Positions 12,131 to 64,000 of a DNA stretch of 64,000 bases are shown piece by piece. A model generated the notes under the pieces. The model ran no database searches and was not told the origin of the DNA. It saw nothing but the letters and a program-made list of their open reading frames with translations. The first letter of the stretch is position 1; each line of letters starts with the position of its first letter. This stretch comes from an uncultured Gemmatimonadales bacterium (lineage in GTDB: Bacteria; Gemmatimonadota; Gemmatimonadetes; Palauibacterales; Palauibacteraceae): contig CAWANJ010000006.1 of assembly GCA_963783385.1 (NCBI GenBank), positions 160,001-224,000 on the forward strand, read 5' to 3'. The position numbers were made by a program, and so were the translations under genes.

Positions 12131-12248
12131 AGGCGCCGCCGGCGGCGGCTCCGGATCGGGAGGCTGAAGGAGCGCTCTCCCGATCGTCCGGCGGCGGGCG
12201 CTGGCGGCCCCTAGCCTCGCCCCGGGACTCCTCCCCACATTGGCGATC

Positions 12249-14249
12249 ATGAATACGCTACGGAGCATCTCGGCCGCCGTCTGCCTGGCGCTCCTGGGCG
12301 CCGCGACGGCATCCGCCCAGGAGGCGGACAGCACCTTCATCCGGCAGAACTACGTCAAGCACGAGTACCGCATCCCGATGCGGGACGGCGTGAAGCTGTT
12401 CACCATCGTGTACGTGCCCAGGGACGCGTCCCCGACGCACACCTACCCGATGGTGATGGAGCGTACCTGCTATTCGATCCGACCCTACGGCCCGGACGCC
12501 TACCCGAGCCGGCTGGGACCCGACCGGTTCATGATGCGGGACAAGTACATCTTCGTGTACCAGGACGTGCGCGGGCGCTACATGTCCGAGGGCACCTTCG
12601 TGAACGTGCGCCCCTTCGTCCCCGACTCCATCAAGGCGAAGAACCCGAAGGCCGTCGACGAGGCGTCGGACACCTACGACACCATCGCCTGGCTGCTGAA
12701 GAACGTACCCTACAACAACGGGCTCGTGGGACAGTGGGGGATCAGCTACCCCGGCTTCTACACGACCATGGGGGCGCTGTCGGGGCATCCGGCCCTGGTC
12801 GCCGCCTCGCCGCAGGCGCCGGTCACGAACTTCTACTTCGAGGACTTCCACCACAACGGCGCCCTGACGCAGGGCTACTTCTACACCTACCCGGTGTTCG
12901 GCGTCCAGCACCCCCACCCGACCACCGAGAACTGGTGGATGCCCGAGATGCAGCACGTGCTGGGCACCGAGGGGCAGCAGGGTCGAGGGTTCTTCGGAGG
13001 GGCCCGGAAGATCCAGGGGCTGCCCGACGACTACGACTACCAGCTCAGCCTCGGGCCGCTCCGCAACACGACCGAGAAGTTCTACAAGAACAACTTCTTC
13101 TGGGAGGAGATCGTCCACCATCCCGACTACGACGCCTTCTGGAAGGCGCGCGCCGTCGGCCCGGACATCGTCGAGCACATGAAGACCGGCGCGCCCATGC
13201 CGGCCATGATGGAGGTGGGAGGCTGGTTCGACGCCGAGGACCTGTACGGTCCGCTCCAGGTCCACCGCATGGTCCAGTCGCAGGACCCCCAGCGCTTCAA
13301 CGGACTCGTGTACGGGCCGTTCCGCCACGGCGGCTGGTCCGCGCAGGGCGTCGTTCACACCGTGCACGGCGACATCTACTTCGGCGACTCGCTCGAGACG
13401 AAGTTCCAGCGCGACGTCGAGGCGAAGTTCTTCCACCACTTCCTGAAGGACGGCGGCAAGGGACCGGTGGGGCTGGCCCAGGCCCACATGTTCGACACCG
13501 GCAAGAAGGTGTGGGACAACTTCGAGACCTGGCCCCCCGCGGCCGCCACCAAGCGCTCGCTCTACCTGGACCCGCACGGCTCCCTGTCCTTCGAGCCGCC
13601 CCGGGGCGGCCCGGCCTACTCGGAGTACGTGAGCGATCCCGAGGAGCCCGAGGCGAGCCGCTGCCGGCCGCCGACGATCCAGGGCCTCACCATGTACCAG
13701 TACATGAGCGACGACCAGCGCTGCTTCGACAACGACCGCGGCGTGGTTACCTTCGAGACGCCGCCGCTGGACCACGACGTGACCCTGGCCGGGCCCATCG
13801 AGGTGCACCTGTTCGCGAGCACGTCGACGGACGCCTCGGACTACGTCGTGAAGCTCATCGACGTCTACCCGATGGACGAGCCCGACAGCCCGTACCGGCC
13901 CGACAAGGAAGTGCACTACGCCGGCTACCAGCAGCTGGTGCGCGGCGAGATCATGCGCGGGCGCTACCGGGACGGGTTCGACGACCCGAAGCCGTTCGTG
14001 CCGGGGAAGGTCACGAAGGTCGACTTCCGGCTCCAGGACGTGCTGCAGACGTTCAAGAAGGGGCACCGGATCATGGTGCAGGTGCAGAGCACCTGGTTCC
14101 CGGCCTTCGACCGGAACCCGCAGCACTACGTGCCCAACATCTACGACGCCACGCAGGGCGACTTCGTGAAGGCCACCGAGCGCATCTACCACACGCCCGA
14201 GCAGCCCAGCCGGCTGGACGTGGAGGTGCTGCCGGGCGGGTCTCCGTAG
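12249..14249 (+). CDS. CocE/NonD family hydrolase (alpha-amino acid ester hydrolase / peptidase S15-like)
   Basis: IPMRDGVKL, QDVRGRYMSEG, nucleophile WGISYPG, GWFDAED, C-terminal GHRIMVQVQSTWFP. Confidence 0.93.
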   Translation: MNTLRSISAAVCLALLGAATASAQEADSTFIRQNYVKHEYRIPMRDGVKLFTIVYVPRDASPTHTYPMVMERTCYSIRPYGPDAYPSRLGPDRFMMRDKYIFVYQDVRGRYMSEGTFVNVRPFVPDSIKAKNPKAVDEASDTYDTIAWLLKNVPYNNGLVGQWGISYPGFYTTMGALSGHPALVAASPQAPVTNFYFEDFHHNGALTQGYFYTYPVFGVQHPHPTTENWWMPEMQHVLGTEGQQGRGFFGGARKIQGLPDDYDYQLSLGPLRNTTEKFYKNNFFWEEIVHHPDYDAFWKARAVGPDIVEHMKTGAPMPAMMEVGGWFDAEDLYGPLQVHRMVQSQDPQRFNGLVYGPFRHGGWSAQGVVHTVHGDIYFGDSLETKFQRDVEAKFFHHFLKDGGKGPVGLAQAHMFDTGKKVWDNFETWPPAAATKRSLYLDPHGSLSFEPPRGGPAYSEYVSDPEEPEASRCRPPTIQGLTMYQYMSDDQRCFDNDRGVVTFETPPLDHDVTLAGPIEVHLFASTSTDASDYVVKLIDVYPMDEPDSPYRPDKEVHYAGYQQLVRGEIMRGRYRDGFDDPKPFVPGKVTKVDFRLQDVLQTFKKGHRIMVQVQSTWFPAFDRNPQHYVPNIYDATQGDFVKATERIYHTPEQPSRLDVEVLPGGSP

Positions 14250-14280: not shown

Positions 14281-15177
14281 GTGATCCGGACGGCCCCGTC
14301 CGAGACCGCGCCGCTCGGCACGGTCCTGGTCAAGCGACCCGAGGAAGCGTTCGGGAGCGCGGAGCGGATCGAGGCGGAGTGGCGCGACCTGGGCTACGCG
14401 TCGCCGCCCGACTACGAGGCCGCGTGCGCCGAGCACGCGGCCTTCGTCGAGCTGCTCCAGGCCATGGGCGCGCAGCCCACCTACCTGCCGTCCGCCCCGG
14501 ACACCGGGCTCGACTCCCTGTACGCCCGCGACGCGTCCATCGTGGGGCCGCGGGGCGCCATCCTGTGCCGCATGGGCAAGGAGGCGCGGCGCGCCGAGCC
14601 GGAGGCGGAGGCTCGTGCATACTGGATGATGGGCGTCCCCGTCCTCGGCGGGATCGAGGCTCCGGGGACCGTGGAGGGCGGCGATTTCGTGTGGCTCGAC
14701 GAGCGTACCGCGGCCGTGGGACGCGGCTACCGCACCAACGCCGAGGGTATCCGCCAGCTACGCGAGCTCCTGGCCGACGACGTGGACCGCCTGCTCGTCG
14801 TGCCGCTCCCCCACTGGCGAGGACCCGGCGATGTCTTCCACCTCATGTCCATCCTGAGCCCGGTGGACCGCGATCTGGCCGTGGTCTACTCGCCCCTCCT
14901 ACCCGTGCCCTTCCGGGAGGCGCTCCTGGAGCGCGGGGTCGAGCTGGTGGAGGTCCCGGACGAGGAGTTCGACGCGCTCGGCTGCAACGTGCTGGCCGTG
15001 GCTCCGCGCCGGTGCGTCATGGTGGAGGGGTGTCCGGTCACGCGCCGCCGGTTGGAGGCGGCGGGCGCCGAGGTGCGCACGTTCGCCGGCCGCGAGATCT
15101 GCCTCGAGGGGCAGGGAGGACCGACCTGCCTCACGCGGCCTGTGGTACGGAGGACCGAGGGCGGACCGACGGGTTGA
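14281..15177 (+). CDS. Dimethylarginine dimethylaminohydrolase / amidinotransferase family
   Basis: DSLYARD, EGGD, GYRTN, FHL and C-terminal GGPTCLTRP catalytic Cys. Confidence 0.88.
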   Translation: MIRTAPSETAPLGTVLVKRPEEAFGSAERIEAEWRDLGYASPPDYEAACAEHAAFVELLQAMGAQPTYLPSAPDTGLDSLYARDASIVGPRGAILCRMGKEARRAEPEAEARAYWMMGVPVLGGIEAPGTVEGGDFVWLDERTAAVGRGYRTNAEGIRQLRELLADDVDRLLVVPLPHWRGPGDVFHLMSILSPVDRDLAVVYSPLLPVPFREALLERGVELVEVPDEEFDALGCNVLAVAPRRCVMVEGCPVTRRRLEAAGAEVRTFAGREICLEGQGGPTCLTRPVVRRTEGGPTG

Positions 15178-15523
15178 GCCCGGCGCCTCGATCCATTCGG
15201 CGACCGCCTCGCGGCTCCGGGGCCCACGCCGGAGCCGCGACCAGACGCTCAACCGACGACGGCGCAGGATTCGGGGTGAATCCACCGGAATGATTCGATC
15301 AGCCATCCGACGTTCGTAGTCGGTAGATCTTGGGCAGACTTCCTATTGTGACCGCCCGAGTTGTTGATACTACGTTGACGAAGCTATTTAGAATTGCTAC
15401 AGAGGTCTCTGGCCGGCCATGGACCAAGTCTTGTCAGAACTCACTCTGGGCGAGCGACAGGAGAAGCCTACCGAAAGTCCCCACAGGCCCAACATTCCTG
15501 CTACCTCGGAGGCCGTAATCGGA

Positions 15524-15772
15524 TTGCCCGCTCGCAAGTACTCGATTGTGACCGCCGCTTCCCTCCTTGTTGCAGTTCTCCCGATCTCCCTTAGACACGT
15601 GTCGGCCAGCCCCTCAGGCGATAGGGGTGTTCGATCTTGGCATGTCACATGGAGTAGAGCGTGTGCTGAGGGAACGTGTGTCTTCAAATTCTTCTGGGAC
15701 TGCGTGACCCCCAACAACCCATTCCCGCAACCGAATTCATGCGACTATCGAGATCCAGGCTGTTTGCCATAG
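15524..15772 (+). CDS. Secreted Cys-rich micro-protein, paralog 1 (about 82 aa)
   Basis: GGAGG at 15508-15512 and TTG start; signal-like N-terminus; WHVTWSRACAEGTC..WDC..CDYRDPGCLP; clear paralog at 16008. Confidence 0.7.
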   Translation: MPARKYSIVTAASLLVAVLPISLRHVSASPSGDRGVRSWHVTWSRACAEGTCVFKFFWDCVTPNNPFPQPNSCDYRDPGCLP

Positions 15773-16007
15773 GGGCGCAAAACCTCTATGAAGTGCCGGC
15801 ACCCAGATCATGGTGGCAGGTCTCAAGTCGGTTCAAGAGCTACCCCGCTTGTAGTCCGACACGCTCCGCAGGTCGAGGATGTTCCTACGGCGTCCGTTCG
15901 GTCACCCAGCGAGAACCAGTGCGCCGACATGCAGGAAGGCACTGTGCGGTGCGAGGCAACGCTCGATACGCGTGACCGAGTATATTCCCCAATACAAGGA
16001 GGATAGC

Positions 16008-16265
16008 ATGCGCACCAAGAGGCTCCAGATGGTCGCAGCCGTTTCCGCCAGCATGCTGGCCCTCGCCCTGCCCATCCACTTTGGACACGCTGCGTCAGCG
16101 CCGGGCGTGGTCGCAGAGATGACAACCTGGCACATTTCCTGGAGCGAGGCGTGCGCGCAGGGGAGCTGCGCACCCAAGGACAATTGGGACTGCTGGTGAC
16201 CCGGCGCACCCCTTCCCGACCCGAACCACTGCGACCCTTGGGATCCTGGTTGTCTGGATCAGTAG
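16008..16265 (+). CDS. Secreted Cys-rich micro-protein, paralog 2 (in-frame TGA at 16197-16199)
   Basis: AAGGAGG RBS and ATG; WHISWSEACAQGSC..WDCW*PGAPLPDPNHCDPWDPGCLDQ aligns without gaps to paralog 1 across the stop. Confidence 0.72.
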
Positions 16266-16303
16266 CGGATCAAGCTCTGCCCATCGCTCGCATGCCGGCC
16301 GGG

Positions 16304-17578
16304 ATGCATAGTCCATCGCGTGCCGGCGCTGGGCAGGCTGTCCTCACAGCGCTTCTGTTACTTCTGGCCAGCTGTCACGCCGACTCCCGCGAGGCGGTCC
16401 GCTCTCCCGTCACGGACACGAACAACCAGGGAGACTCACCAGCGGCGAGCGCCGAGAGTCCTCCCCAACCGGCCGCTGCGGCATGGCATGTCGACCCGGC
16501 GTCTCGTCTGCGAATTGGACGAGCAGCAGGAGACCCCGAGTATCTGTTCGAACGAGTCAATGGCGTCCAGGTCCTGGAGAATGGGAGAATCGCCATAGCC
16601 GACGCCGGCTCCGAGTCGGTCCGCTTGTTTGACGCTTCCGGGCATTGGGTCGCCACTGCCGGTGGGTTTGGTGGGGGGCCGGGCGAGTATCGCGGACTGA
16701 AGTGGATCGGCGAATGCAGTCCTGACACCCTCTATGCGTACGATGCTGTCAACTGGAGGATTACAGAAATCGACGCCGACGGAGGCGTTGACCACATGTT
16801 CACGCCGGCGCTCCCATCCTCCGATATCCCGCCGCTGCGCGTTGCGTGTGCTCCCGATGGTAATGTGATCCTGATGGGTTGGGGTGGCCTTCGACCGGAC
16901 CACGCGATGATGGCCTGGCGTCCAGACGTTCCGATCGCCGTCGTTGACCAGGACGGCCGGCTCGTCAGGGACATTGGAACCGTCCGTGGCAACGAGCGAT
17001 ACGCCTTCGCTCGCAGCGTTGGTCCCATGCCCCTCGGAAAGTCGACGTTGATCGCGGGAGGTGCAAGCCACGTCTACGTTGGAACAGGTGACAGCTATGA
17101 GATTCGGCAGTACGGTCGTAGGGGCCAGTTCATCAGAACGGTCAGGCTCGGCCGTCGACCTGTTGCCATTACGGACCGCGACATCAATGCGTTCACGGAC
17201 AGTGTACTAGCTCTCACACAGAGCAGCGCCAAGCGAAACATCTGGCGCAAGCAGCTCGAGGAGGTCCGGTTTCCAGCCACTCTCCCGGCCTACGAGTCCC
17301 TGCTGGTCGGGGGAAAGGGCTGCCTGTGGGTCGAGGATTATGCTAGACCGGGAACAGCTTCCGACCGTACATGGTCTGTCTTCGCCCCATCAGGTCGGCT
17401 TGTTGCGACGAGTGCTACTCCACATGGCTTGCAGGTGCTGGATATCGGCCCATCAACCATCGCCGGTGTCACGGCTGATTCTCTAGGAATCCAGCATGTC
17501 GAGGTGCACTCACTGCTTCGTGACTCCCCGCAGGGAGCCGAGGCCTGTGGTGAGACTCAAGCAAGAGGGCCAGCCTGA
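16304..17578 (+). CDS. 6-bladed beta-propeller lipoprotein
   Basis: Lipobox LLASC; GRIAIADAGSESVRLFDASG, GGFGGGPGEY, GCLWVEDY, WSVFAPSGR (NHL/TolB-like blades). Confidence 0.78.
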   Translation: MHSPSRAGAGQAVLTALLLLLASCHADSREAVRSPVTDTNNQGDSPAASAESPPQPAAAAWHVDPASRLRIGRAAGDPEYLFERVNGVQVLENGRIAIADAGSESVRLFDASGHWVATAGGFGGGPGEYRGLKWIGECSPDTLYAYDAVNWRITEIDADGGVDHMFTPALPSSDIPPLRVACAPDGNVILMGWGGLRPDHAMMAWRPDVPIAVVDQDGRLVRDIGTVRGNERYAFARSVGPMPLGKSTLIAGGASHVYVGTGDSYEIRQYGRRGQFIRTVRLGRRPVAITDRDINAFTDSVLALTQSSAKRNIWRKQLEEVRFPATLPAYESLLVGGKGCLWVEDYARPGTASDRTWSVFAPSGRLVATSATPHGLQVLDIGPSTIAGVTADSLGIQHVEVHSLLRDSPQGAEACGETQARGPA

Positions 17579-17635
17579 GGCGAGCGCGCCGGCGGCCGCC
17601 TCGGGGTCGAGCCCCGGGACGGCCCGCTCTCGCGC

Positions 17636-19217
17636 TCAGCCGCCCACGTTGTCCGTGGACTCGATGAACTTCGCCACGTTGTCGTGCAGCTCCTTCAGCG
17701 CCGGAACGTGCGCGTACACCATGTGGCCGGACTGATAGAAGTCGTAGGAGATGTTGTCCTGCAGCCGGCGCTCCATGGGCAGGTGCTTCATCGTGTAGAC
17801 GGCCGCGTAGAAGGGCGTCGCCAGGTCGAAGTAGCCCGAGTTGAGCAGCACCTTCAGCTTCGGGTTCGTCTTCATGGCCTGCGCCAGGTCGAGCATGACG
17901 TTGGTCGCGCCGATGCTGCCGAAGCGCGTCCCGGGCGCCCGGTGCTTGAAGCTCCATCCCTTGGCATACAGGCCGATCTCCGGCCGGTACGACTTGCCCT
18001 TCCCGAAGTCCAGCGTCTTGCGCACGTAGTCGTTGAACAGCGACACGTACGCCGAGCTGATCGCGGAGGCCTGGGGATCGTAGGACGCCTCCTGGCTGAG
18101 GGGATCGATCGTCGGGCCGGCGAAGCGGGTGTCGAGCCGGCCGACGGTCTCCTCGTCCTGGGCGAGCAGGTTCTTGGTGAACTCGCCGCCGTTCACGCGA
18201 AGGTCCGCCTTCATCAGGTAGTCCACCGGAAGGCCGATGTACTGGTGCATCTTCTCGGCGACCGAGCGCAGCGTGGCCGAGTCGAGGGCCGCCCCCTGGT
18301 CGAGCGCCTGCTGGTACGGGCCCATGGCGAAGCTCTCGACCTCCTTCAGGAAGGGCTCGAGCTCGGCCGGCCGGTCGGCAGCGCGTGGTGGTACCAGGCC
18401 GTGGCCGCGTAGGTGGGCAGGGCGAGCTCGTAGGTGAGGTCCATGCCCGGGTTCATCTGCGGACCATCGACGTCCGAGAGGTCGTAGCTCAGGATCTCGG
18501 AGAGGAGGACGACGCCGTTCAGGTCGACGTCCTTGCCGTTCTCGAGGTCGTTGGAGAGCACGGCCGAGCGCGTGGTGCCGTAGCTCTCGCCGAACAGGTA
18601 CTTGGGCGAGTTCCAGCGCCCGTACTCCGACAGGAAGCGGGTGATGAAGTCCGCGAACGCGTGCGCGTCGGCGATCCACGCCGTAGAAGTCCTTGTCGGT
18701 GCCGATCGCCGCCCTGGTCCTTGCCGATGATGCGGCTGAAGCCGGTGCCCATGGCGTCCACGAACACCAGGTCGCTGGCGTCGAGGAGGCTGTAGTCGTT
18801 GTTCACCAGCTTGTAGGGCGCGGCGGCGGTGTGGCTGTGGTCGGCCGTGGTCACCCGGCGCGGCCCGAAGGCGCCCATGTGGAGCCACACGGTCGAGGAG
18901 CCCGGACCGCCGTTGTACAGGAAGGTGACGGGCCGGCTGGCGGGGTCAGCGCCCTGCTTGAAGTAGGCGACGTAGAACATGCTGCCGGTCGGCTTGTCCT
19001 CGTCGTTCTTGAGGATGATGGTCCCGGCGACGGCCCTGTACGAGATCTGCTTGCCCTCGACCGTGACGGTGCCGTGAGTGACGGACTGCTCGGGCTGGAC
19101 CGCCGACTTCCTGGCCGGCGCGCCCGAGTCCGACGGACTCGACTGCGCCACGGAGATGGCGGGCGTGAAGAACGCGCAGGCCGCGAACAGCGCCGCCAGG
19201 GTCGCGAAGCGCCTCAT
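17636..19217 (-). CDS. Peptidase S10 (serine carboxypeptidase), secreted, frameshifted
   Basis: FLYNGGPGSS, DAMGTGFS, GESYG nucleophile, GYFDLATP, SGHMVY. Confidence 0.9.
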
Positions 19218-60493: not shown

Positions 60494-61322
60494 GCGCCCG
60501 GCCGAAGGTGGACCTGGACGGCCTCGCCCGGAAGTGCGAGGCGCTGAGGCTCCTCCACATCGCCGAGTCCCTGCCCGAGGTGGTCGAGACGGGCACGCGC
60601 GAGAACATGACCCCGATCCACTTCCTCGAGGAGGTCCTCACCCGGGAGCTCACTGGAAGACCGAGCGCCGCATCGCCACCTCGCTGCGGCTCTCGGGCCT
60701 GCCGACCGGCAAGACGCTCGAGAACTTTGACTGGGCCTTCCAGCCCCGCGTCGACCGCTCCAAGGTCGAGGCCCTGGCCACCTGCGCCTTCCTGCGCGAG
60801 AGGGAGAACGTCCTCTTCCTCGGCCCGCCCGGCGTCGGGAAGAGTCACCTGGCCGCCGCCCTCGGGGTCAAGGCCATCAAGAACGGCTTCTCGGTCACCC
60901 ACTTCCTGCTGGACGACCTCATGCACGCCCTCCGGCAGGACGCGGCCGTGCCCCCGGGCCGCCTGCGCTCGAAGCGCTACATGAGCTCCGCTCTCCTCCT
61001 CGTCGACGAGGTGGGCTTTCGGCCCCTGGACCGCCACGAGGCCAACATCCTCTTCCGCCTCGTCTCCGCCCGCTACGAGAAGGGCTCGGTGGTCCTCACC
61101 TCCAACAAGCACGTCCGGGACTGGCCGGAGATCTTCGCCGGGGACGAGGTCCTCACCACCGCCATCCTCGACCGGCTCCTCCACCACGTCCACGTCGTCC
61201 ACATCGACGGGCGTAGCTACCGGCTCCGGGAGATCGGTGAGCTCCTCCAGCCGACCACGGCGTCCCCACCTCCACGGAAAGGAGGCGTCAGGCAGCCCGC
61301 TCTCTCGAGCCCGGGTGCGTAA
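60490..61322 (+). CDS. istB: IS21 helper ATPase (frameshift near 60655)
   Basis: GPPGVGKSHLA, LLVDEVG, LTSNK, AILDRLLHH. Confidence 0.93.
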
Positions 61323-61620: not shown

Positions 61621-62879
61621 TCACTCGGCGCAGGATCCAGGGCGAGCGACCTGCCCCACTCCATCTCGGTCGATGCACAGAATTTCCAGGAACTCTGCGT
61701 CCAGAGCGTCCCTACCCTTCAGGACTACTAGATGACTCGACCCTGCCACCACAGTGGCAGGAGCCGGCAGTTCGAGATCGCCAAGAACCTTCCCTCTTGA
61801 GCCGAGTAATACCCACTCCGCGCTATCTGTGGAGACGTGGGGAGTGCGGCGGACCCAGATGGTATGATCAGAACCCACGACGATCGCATTATAATCTGGG
61901 AGAACGTGACTCACCGGAGTCACGCGGACGACGCGGTCGTATGCCGCACCAACCCTACCTCGATCAGCTTTAGAAATCACAGTGCGCAGCAGCGTCATCT
62001 GTTTACGGACATCATGTTTGAGTCTCTCACGCTCCCGCTCGATGTCCTCGTCGGTGGCAATCTCCCGCCGGGTGCTCAGCGCCACCGCCGGCAACGTGTC
62101 GCCGTGCATGTCCACTCGCTCCCACTGTAAGGAGTCACTCCTACCTACCCAGAGCGTCTTCCCCACTACTACAGAGCGTGTCCGCGGCCCCAGAATTACG
62201 TCCTGGTAGAACGCGTCTTTTCCCTCGGTAATGAACCATGCCTGCGGATTAGATCGGCGCGCCACTACGTGCTGTGTTCCAGAGTCAGCATCGAAGAAGA
62301 CATAAGTCGTCGTATCGAAGACGGCCATTCTCTGTTGGCCGGTCCGACGGCTCACTCGCCGGCCTCGGTCGCTGAACACGGCGGAACATCCGGAGACAAA
62401 TCCCACTAGGTTAGGCCGCAGCTGGAAAAGCCGGCGAGTGAGGGACTCCGGGTACCGAGGACGCGTCCATCAGCAGTCAGGTGGGTAATCCGGGTAAGCT
62501 GTATATCCCAAATGCAGAGCCCGGCGGTCGAGTCAAAAGCGATGTCCCGAATAGCCTCGAACATGCCGGGACCGGCGCCGCGTCCACCAAGGCTGCGCAG
62601 GAACCTGCCGTCCGTGGTGAACATCTCCACCTTCTGGGTAGCCTCGTCGGTCACGGCAAGTAGACTATCACCGAAGGTTGCAACCCCTCGGATCCGGCCA
62701 AATGCCGCAGGACCCTTTGCCGCCGCGCCCCCGATGTTCGCTATCTTCCGGTAGGACAGCACGGGCAGTTCCGGACTCTCTCGGCTCTGGGTAGGTTTCG
62801 AGGGTGCACAGGCCATGGCGGCGATTCCAAAGAGAGCGGCCAAGGCGAATGAGTCAACCGCGCGTAGGGAGAGGCTCAC
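61621..62879 (-). CDS. 6-bladed beta-propeller lipoprotein (frameshift near 62410), lower GC
   Basis: Lipobox AMAC; FTTDGRFLRSLGGRGAGPGMF; GSDHTIWVRR..WVLLGSRGKVLG. Confidence 0.7.
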
Positions 62880-63399: not shown

Positions 63400-64000
63400 G
63401 AGGCGGCTGCGGGCCTTGGGCTACGCCCGGCGGGTGTGGCTGCGGGCCGACGCGGGCTTCCCCGCCGAGCCGTTCCTGGCAGGCCTGGAAGCGGAAGACG
63501 GGGTGCGCTATGTTGTGTGGTTGAGGAGCACTGCCGTGCTGGAGCACCAGGCCGCGCCCCATGTGGACCGGATCCTCGAGAAGCGGGTCCCCGAGGACCG
63601 GGCCCACACGATCGAGATCTCCTACGCCGCCAGGTCCTGGAGCCGGGAGCGGCGGGTGGTGCTGGTGATCGAGGAGCGGCCCGACGAGCTCATGCCCCAC
63701 TGGTTCTTTCTCCTCACCCACGCGACGCCGGAGGAGATCCCGGGGGCGGAGCTGTTGATCGAGTACCGGAAGCGGGGGCCACCGAGAAGGATTACGGCGG
63801 CTGGCAGGGGGCCCTGGCGCTGGCGCTCTCCTCCACCAATCGCCCTAAAATCACCTACGGCGGCCAGCCGCCCCGGCGCCGGAGCCCGCCGGTGGACAGC
63901 TTCGCCGCCAACGAGGCGAGTCTCCTGATGAGCCTTCTGGCCGCCAACCTGATGCACGCCGGCCGCGTCCTGAGCGAGCGGGCCCGCCGACACCTGTGGA
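63400..64000 (+). mobile_element. IS1380-family transposase fragment (5' truncated, runs off window)
   Basis: VWLRADAGFP, SWSRERRVVLV, HWFFLLT, YRKRG, FAANEA.LLMSLLAANL. Confidence 0.75.

Follow-up and report, generated by a model that had tools for sequence, protein, structure and literature searches.

A mobile island in an uncultured Gemmatimonadales bacterium encodes a putative exported cysteine-rich small protein beside a propeller lipoprotein, a gene pair conserved in Gemmatimonadota

The DNA analysed here, referred to as the window throughout, is a stretch of 64,000 nucleotides (nt) from an uncultured Gemmatimonadales bacterium of the family Palauibacteraceae (assembly GCA_963783385.1, contig CAWANJ010000006.1, positions 160,001 to 224,000 of the forward strand). 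Within it, an island of about 2.4 kb (15198-17606), gained recently by horizontal transfer, contains three genes and nothing else: pepA, which encodes a putative exported small protein with five cysteines, its recently inactivated paralogue pepB, and the gene of a propeller lipoprotein, P0003. All coordinates are positions in the 64-kb window; L038 to L040 denote metagenome loci, G followed by three digits the genomes that were searched, and P followed by four digits proteins. Our analysis demonstrated that pepA belongs to a family of small genes which, at all 29 outside loci called genuine, adjoin a propeller-family gene on the same strand and which, in Candidatus Palauibacter, are mostly embedded in operons for an extracytoplasmic function (ECF) sigma factor and its anti-sigma factor. 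We tentatively favour, at somewhat less than even confidence, the view that the exported, disulfide-rich small protein and its cognate propeller lipoprotein might form a ligand-receptor pair in the cell envelope.

The pepA product begins with an N-terminal segment that may be a signal or an anchor, followed by a conserved Pro20, a potential cleavage site and the core WHVTWSRACAEGTC...WDC...CD..DPGC, and would thus combine a Sec-type N-terminal segment with a domain of about 45 residues carrying five conserved cysteines. The frame is open and GGAGG is located upstream, in line with the reading of this small open reading frame (ORF) and its ribosome-binding site in an earlier note on the same DNA, which had been made from the sequence alone. 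The TTG start is favoured, since L040 lacks the ATG further upstream at position 15419. A conventional small-x-small site, VSA followed by S, was located by inspection at residue 28, eight residues past the conserved proline which closes the hydrophobic segment. Maturation after the residues ACA, as suggested in the earlier note, found no support, as conservation within the mature domain peaks at the corresponding xCA[EQ]xxC core in both peptide subfamilies. In L039 and L040 pepA is intact, and the two amino-acid changes in the L040 copy both affect the N-terminal segment, while the mature domain exhibits synonymous change only. The architecture shared with the second small ORF, pepB, which had been pointed out before, is readily visible in the alignment of the two: 35 of the 85 columns are invariant, including those of all five cysteines, and a search of the genome with pepA recovers pepB at E = 3.3e-20.

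Relatives of these small ORFs occur elsewhere, as the note had anticipated. Pfam (E <= 1), NCBIfam and a profile search of the sequences in PDB gave no match for the peptides, and pepA, searched by word index against 5.8 billion proteins, matched the window's own protein alone. HMMER, run exhaustively over 1.84 billion representative proteins, yielded seven matches, namely the two own sequences, one spurious repeat protein and four real outside homologues of 75-83 residues (P0006, P0007, P0009 and P0010; E from 2e-12 to 7e-5). Matches in genomes were called genuine by eye, based on a small ORF shape, a signal-like segment and the cysteine motif; since each group was sampled by the genomes searched, 'not found' applies to these genomes and does not imply absence. 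A two-sequence profile gave three weak matches in relatives, all of which were rejected as out-of-frame noise inside long ORFs, and a scan of genome contigs with alignment A3 gave no matches. Searching 145 genomes of the order with a profile of the mature domain resulted in 27 rows, two of them from the window; the 25 outside rows comprise 13 genuine loci, six noise matches and six that were not inspected. An 18-sequence profile, which pepA itself matches at E = 2.1e-25, gave 27 outside rows at E <= 0.001 in 401 genomes of the phylum (26 genuine, one noise). In this phylum sample, 14 of the 19 Candidatus Palauibacter genomes are positive and a few matches belong to two other families; a motif scan over 185,579 species gave eight matches, all in Gemmatimonadota. 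Combined, the searches provide 29 distinct genuine loci outside the window.

Commonly, members of the family have one to four Lys/Arg among the first eight residues, a hydrophobic stretch ending in a proline which is invariant in 17 sequences (alignment A8), a short spacer, and the core xCA[EQ]xxC followed by more conserved cysteines. Five cysteines follow the conserved proline in 15 of these 17 sequences. The window's pepA shows each of these traits, that is, the signal-like segment with its proline, the core, the further cysteines and the adjoining propeller gene at 16292. Two peptide subtypes can be distinguished, one with the pattern ...WxC-x12-CD-x5-GC, as in the window, and one from Palauibacter with the pattern LSTA[AS]CAExxCG...DCxCPD...PRC. 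Among nine Palauibacter genes (36 pairs) the ratio of non-synonymous to synonymous differences, pN/pS, is 0.49 for the whole gene and 0.40 for the mature core, indicating coding genes under purifying selection. Sequence comparison supports the reading of the small ORFs as true genes, homologous to one another and with relatives elsewhere, that code for putative exported, cysteine-rich proteins. The family appears to be new, being known here only from Gemmatimonadota and having no counterpart in Pfam, NCBIfam or PDB. A lower-GC (guanine plus cytosine) patch elsewhere in the window's genome contains an unrelated small ORF (G000:C2:~133900-134140, plus strand) that combines a signal-like segment with a tail rich in Cys (...CDQSCHSNSDCSADPLCSKCS...) and is followed about 1 kb downstream by a weak propeller-like ORF (C2:135103-136170). 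The small ORF may represent another small exported cysteine-rich protein near a propeller-like gene.

At each of the outside loci (29/29) a same-strand propeller-family gene adjoins the peptide gene, bearing out the linkage that had been suspected from the window. Two of the outcomes that the note had named as refuting its reading, a lack of homologous small ORFs and a lack of linkage to propeller genes, were therefore not obtained. The propeller gene is positioned downstream of the peptide gene at 27 loci and upstream at two, in G134:C35 (gap of 74 nt) and in G361. The gap between the peptide and the first aligned propeller residue ranges from 0 to 349 nt, with overlaps or a spacing of only a few nt at several loci; translational coupling would fit this arrangement, since the propeller gene often overlaps the peptide stop or begins within tens of nt of it. 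The partners are of two types. The NHL-like type of P0003 is found in the window, G134:C35, G003, G361 and G337, and the Palauibacter partner, represented by P0022, matches TolB_like (PF15869) with 65.7 bits (E = 5.6e-18); both subtypes match DUF5128 weakly. Another propeller homologue from Palauibacter, P0023 (L104:6145-7263), loses its similarity to P0022 after about residue 303 and continues into a different Cys-containing tail, so that its C-terminus may be the result of a fusion or replacement.

In Palauibacter a four-gene unit ends with this pair: the genes of an ECF sigma factor (Sigma70_r2/r4) and a zf-HC2 anti-sigma factor come first, then those of the peptide and the propeller lipoprotein. 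The anti-sigma factor has about 700 residues and a large extracytoplasmic portion. The sigma and anti-sigma genes are directly upstream in 11 of 11 extended copies of the P0022-type module that were tested, and an anti-sigma gene is located within 1.5 kb at 20 of the 26 loci of the phylum sample. These units are paralogous and have been multiplied, in locus L100 (G140:C3:101800-119400) as a tandem series with three sigma/anti-sigma pairs in 17.6 kb and in L099 as one with two pairs; four peptide loci are present in G143. A signal peptidase I gene was considered as an additional part of the module and rejected, as it occurs at 2 of 12 extended loci only, between units in L099 and L100. Genes for an exporter, a protease or a modifying enzyme of the type that acts on ribosomally synthesized and post-translationally modified peptides (RiPPs) were not found in the island, and the Palauibacter modules add sigma and anti-sigma genes only; the earlier statement that no RiPP-modifying enzyme is adjacent therefore holds for an island of three genes. 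By tblastn, the 64-kb window gave no sigma or anti-sigma gene, and in the genome no homologue was found of the Palauibacter anti-sigma factor or of the P0022-type propeller.

P0003, whose gene follows pepB on the same strand as the earlier note had read it, has by inspection the lipobox LLLLLAS-C28, and the cysteine is aligned in 38 of 40 family members. A profile of these 40 sequences (A7) was compared with PDB chains and matched 6d69 (1.2e-36), 7qrw (6.7e-33), 1q7f (1e-12) and 3fvz (1.3e-4); the named matches are Thin, TRIM2/3/71 (about 1e-32), Brat (1e-12) and, with 3fvz, the peptidyl-alpha-hydroxyglycine lyase (PAL) domain of PAM. The homology to solved NHL domains supports an assignment of P0003 as an NHL-type, six-bladed beta-propeller, a binding-type fold by its sequence relationships. 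The six blades proposed before are in this respect supported by homology, but the score against DUF5128 (PF17170) falls short: P0003 reaches 16.3 bits (E = 0.0059) over residues 84-137 only, below the gathering cut-off of 22.9 bits. In the Pfam scan TolB_like, with its gathering cut-off of 29.2 bits, gave no match for the window's propeller. While the profile aligns with the NHL domains of the TRIM-NHL proteins Thin and TRIM2/3/71, of Brat and of PAM, the window's protein differs from them in being a bacterial lipoprotein, presumably exported to the envelope, in having no RING/B-box context and in not conserving PAL-like metal ligands. It might be hypothesized from the similarity to PAM that the propeller is a maturation enzyme which, like PAL, modifies the peptide, the two being the enzyme and substrate of a new RiPP-like class. 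The weak match to 3fvz and the strict linkage would both agree with such a role. However, the TRIM-NHL binding domains give much stronger matches (1e-36 to 1e-32), no conserved His/Cys cluster as expected of a PAL-like metal site is seen in the invariant columns of the 40-member alignment, and no further tailoring enzyme or exporter is encoded nearby; we therefore regard an enzymatic role as highly improbable.

The P0003-type family is very large in the order, with matches in 54 of 61 genomes and more than 300 in total, often as tandem arrays; the window's own genome has 11 matches. Among 34 paralogue loci scanned for a nearby peptide gene, the single positive one (G003) has a distant member of the peptide family with the same C-x12-C-x6-C spacing and a DPGC end (hhalign E = 1e-3). 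In a quick maximum-likelihood tree, the four peptide-linked P0003-type propellers group with one paralogue from the window's genome (support of 96 in the Shimodaira-Hasegawa-like approximate likelihood ratio test, SH-aLRT), and P0003 is sister to the G134:C35 protein (SH-aLRT 95); given the long branches, this grouping is tentative. Extra cysteines common to the peptide-linked propellers were considered and dismissed, as no general pattern emerged. A 157-residue N-terminal fragment of a propeller-family lipoprotein (lipobox AAMAC, GPGMFE motif) is encoded on the minus strand in another lower-GC patch of the window (62406-62879). It adjoins insertion-sequence-like genes, an IstB-like ATPase ORF (~60534-61322) and a transposase-like ORF (63416-63928), and no credible peptide gene is adjacent to it.

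The juxtaposition of the genes, the joint multiplication of peptide, propeller, sigma and anti-sigma genes, and the binding-type fold of the propeller are the reasons for favouring a two-protein module of the envelope. In such a module the small protein would be exported, possibly cleaved, and stabilized by disulfide bonds, and within the envelope it would be the specific ligand of its cognate propeller lipoprotein, which would serve as the receptor. In Palauibacter the ECF sigma/anti-sigma switch would act together with the pair or control it; in the window's genome the pair would be an orphan copy without that switch. A function of the propeller as receptor, or as immunity protein, is inferred.

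Several lines of evidence demonstrate that the island at 15198-17606 has been acquired horizontally. Its GC content is 0.57-0.66 across 15200-17600, compared with 0.70-0.76 in the left and 0.66-0.77 in the right flank, confirming the lower-GC cassette described before, and its codon usage is atypical for the host, with a third-position GC of 0.59 in pepA, 0.76 in pepB and 0.65 in the propeller gene compared to 0.92 in the neighbouring arginine-deiminase (ADI)-like gene. The congener G001 has an empty site, with only about 85 nt separating the ADI-like gene from the convergent gene downstream, and peptide searches of the other three genomes of the genus gave no copy at the island site. The island is flanked by an imperfect direct repeat (Table 1), the left copy of which coincides with the empty-site alignment and with the jump in identity to L040. 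This metagenome locus derives from a relative with about 90% identity to the window (roughly 90% average nucleotide identity); the island is 96-100% identical to it from about 15200 to 17600, whereas the flanking genes are 82-90% identical. Homologous replacement through the conserved flanks would explain this pattern of a near-identical island between diverged flanks. A scan of metagenomes gave near-identical copies of the island and no other matches.

A mobile island of this kind might equally be expected of a toxin-immunity pair, in which the pepA product would be a Sec-exported, disulfide-stabilized, bacteriocin-like peptide and the propeller would confer immunity from the periplasm or the outer membrane. 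The island would then serve as a mobile cassette for competition, with pepB as a second toxin that has been discarded. Its presence varies among close relatives and it was recently common to different lineages, the loops between the cysteines are diversified, the genes for peptide and downstream lipoprotein are tightly packed and often overlapping, and several paralogous variants per genome are possible (up to four in G143). The repeated independent loss of pepB and the mostly non-synonymous changes in the propeller, both described below, would fit as well. On the other hand, none of the modules includes an exporter, lysis or processing gene, the peptides are without a match in Pfam or NCBIfam (PADLOC and PHROGs were not scanned), and cleavage and release of the peptide are uncertain. 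Moreover, at most loci the pair resides within an ECF sigma/anti-sigma operon, a context typically found with envelope signalling rather than with bacteriocin loci. Although it is the main rival to a ligand-receptor pair, we consider a competition cassette unlikely.

With regard to pepB, the earlier note had taken the frame at 16008-16265 for a second intact peptide gene; in doing so, an in-frame TGA at 16197-16199 had been read through. The gene starts at ATG 16008 and, by translation table 11, yields no more than 63 residues (P0005); around the stop, the frame reads ...WDCW, stop, PGAPLPDPNHCDPWDPGCLDQ, stop. The same ATG and TGA are present in L038 and L039, which are 98-100% identical to the window. 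A contig from run X1, which covers 15851-16249, exhibits two differences only, ATG to ATA at the start codon and TGA to TGG, and in L040 the start is ATA, a CAG has become a TAG stop, the TGA site is TGG, and a 2-nt insertion causes a frameshift near the end. Thus, each haplotype seen has at least one disabling change and these changes differ among haplotypes, demonstrating that pepB is a pseudogene which has been inactivated independently more than once. The TGG in L040 and in the X1 contig indicates that the TGA arose by a one-base change from an ancestral Trp codon.

An in-frame TGA might also be decoded, either as selenocysteine in a C-x-U motif or by readthrough, which would make pepB a selenoprotein or otherwise recoded gene. 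The genome does encode a selenocysteine tRNA (76 bits against a cut-off of 47, anticodon TCA; G000:C9:429086-429177, outside the window) and has a selB match above its cut-off, and the resemblance of pepB to pepA carries on past the TGA. However, the four outside homologues and pepA show T, W, H, H and H in this column and never Cys, the site is TGG in L040 and the X1 contig, and the RNA 3' of the TGA is no more stable than shuffled sequence (z = -0.96). The TGG haplotypes, in addition, bear the other lesions (ATA start, TAG, frameshift), and selB is split across two frames in the assembly. For want of Cys in the homologue column and of a folding signal, and in view of the TGG alleles, recoding was rejected as having hardly any credibility. 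The selB match itself (G000:C9:419445-421299) consists of two reading frames abutting near C9:420103, due to either an assembly frameshift or a real pseudogene.

Table 1. Features of the island and its borders, by position in the 64-kb window.
Feature	Position	Strand	Basis and remarks
Left copy of an imperfect 17-nt direct repeat	15198..15214	.	CGGCGACCGCCTCGCGG; 88% identity to the right copy, spacing 2392 nt
Perfect 12-nt inverted repeat with 8-nt loop	15209..15240	+	Just past the ADI-like gene; repeat search
Ribosome-binding site of pepA (GGAGG)	15508..15512	+	11 nt before the TTG start; read from the sequence
pepA, intact; putative exported small protein with five Cys, 82 residues	15524..15772	+	Open ORF of 82 codons, TTG start
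Ribosome-binding site of pepB (AAGGAGGA)	15996..16003	+	Read from the sequence
pepB, pseudogene, paralogue of pepA (43% identity)	16008..16265	+	In-frame TGA at 16197-16199
NHL-type propeller lipoprotein gene (P0003), 428 residues	16292..17578	+	Lipobox LASC, Cys28; ATG 26 nt past the stop of the pepB frame
Right copy of the imperfect 17-nt direct repeat	17590..17606	.	CGGCGGCCGCCTCGGGG; repeat search and drop in identity to L040 from ~17600

Returning to the proposed ligand-receptor pair, a number of observations weigh against it. As pepB has been inactivated at least twice, the module could be decaying. The propeller gene is intact in L039 and L040, but 7 of the 9 nt at which L040 differs from the window are non-synonymous, giving seven amino-acid changes, a better fit to neutral drift or diversifying selection than to strong constraint. 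Most members of the P0003 family are without a nearby peptide gene (only 1 of the 34 paralogue loci scanned had one), indicating that the propeller fold is independent of the peptide. A signalling role in the window's genome is an extrapolation, since neither the Palauibacter anti-sigma factor nor a P0022-type propeller was found there. Finally, several Palauibacter peptides have a proline at +1 of their best small-x-small site (AEA), for example those at L100:5901-6116 and L100:11453-11653. Proline at this position blocks signal peptidase I, and cleavage and release of the peptides are accordingly uncertain. In the Palauibacter peptides a conserved S-T-A site is also located just ahead of the CAE core.

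The proline at +1 would be readily accommodated if the small protein remained uncleaved and served as a membrane-anchored or periplasmic redox or metal sensor, its five cysteines (CxxxxC) sensing thiol or metal stress and the propeller acting as a scaffold. The odd number of cysteines, the conserved CA[EQ]xxC and the zf-HC2 type of the linked anti-sigma factors would be in agreement with this idea. It is, however, at odds with the loss of the first Cys in P0007 and of all but three in the G134:C2 member, no conserved His or Met partners are evident, and the anti-sigma factor is missing from the window's genome; we regard a sensor of this type as rather improbable. Similarly improbable, and slightly more so, appears a decaying, non-functional remnant comprising the whole island. 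A remnant would be consistent with a pepB that is dead in each haplotype seen, with propeller substitutions that fit neutrality and with the missing sigma/anti-sigma partner. Against it, pepA and the 428-codon ORF of the propeller are both intact in the window, L039 and L040, the mature domain of pepA has undergone synonymous change only, and good ribosome-binding sites have been kept by both small genes.

The island is located between two convergent genes of housekeeping type. The left flank consists of ordinary genes, encoding a member of the S15 X-Pro dipeptidyl-peptidase family (12240-14249) and an arginine-deiminase/DDAH-like amidinotransferase (14281-15177), the ADI-like gene mentioned above. 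The inverted repeat just past the latter is probably its terminator hairpin. No integrase or transposase is encoded within the island, a promoter scan of the island gave no sigma-70-like site, and an Rfam scan of 15200-17700 gave nothing meaningful.

The general kind of system, a small exported protein next to a propeller lipoprotein or accessory genes in an ECF operon, is familiar, while the family and its architecture appear to be new. In Bacteroidota, NVEALA proteins (PF14055) are reportedly encoded beside DUF5128/TolB_like six-bladed propeller lipoproteins, and the earlier note had drawn a parallel to them. What is alike is a small protein with a hydrophobic N-terminal segment beside a six-bladed propeller lipoprotein, with P0022 matching TolB_like. 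An equivalence of the two was nevertheless not substantiated: pepA and pepB have no Pfam match, PF14055 finds nothing in the whole genome (E <= 0.1), and the present family differs in lacking any sequence relationship, in its five cysteines and CA[EQ]xxC core, in its phylum and in being mostly linked to ECF genes. ECF operons with accessory envelope proteins are well known, as exemplified by RseA/RseB and by surface signalling of the FecI/FecR/FecA type. The Palauibacter peptide and propeller genes, which come directly after those of an ECF sigma factor and a zf-HC2 anti-sigma factor, resemble such operons; they differ in that a pair of a Cys-rich mini-protein and a propeller is, in our searches, not a described ECF context, and the window's copy has neither sigma nor anti-sigma factor. 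Quinoprotein amine dehydrogenases (MADH, QHNDH) have a beta-propeller subunit against which a small subunit rich in Cys is packed. The similarity to a small Cys/Trp-rich polypeptide encoded beside a propeller protein is by analogy only, and the system described here differs by having no family-wide Trp, no gene for a MauG or radical-SAM maturase, and six NHL blades instead of seven. In searches of full-text literature we came across no account of the peptide family or the four-gene unit, and in the text of the Palauibacterales paper PMC10469786, as far as it was covered by a term search, the terms sigma, propeller, NHL, lipoprotein, bacteriocin and cysteine-rich are all missing.

This work brings to light a family of small proteins that had so far escaped annotation, together with a strictly conserved pair of genes, which in one genus is embedded in multiplied ECF operons. 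The window's copy is an orphan and partly decayed, and two aspects of it are of more general relevance: it shows that relatives at the species level can exchange a small island through replacement at one fixed site between genes, and pepB illustrates how easily a stop codon is overlooked when a sequence is read by eye. It might be speculated, though we hold this to be doubtful, that the modules represent a peptide-based signalling system of the envelope in a Gram-negative phylum, in which each module would export a disulfide-knotted peptide of its own, whose recognition by a cognate propeller lipoprotein would be relayed to a cognate pair of anti-sigma and ECF sigma factors in a self- or kin-specific fashion, and in which orphan island pairs would spread horizontally as add-on or eavesdropping modules. 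If peptide and propeller do constitute a ligand-receptor couple, the pair would provide a tractable entry to envelope signalling or peptide-mediated competition in the mostly uncultured Gemmatimonadota.

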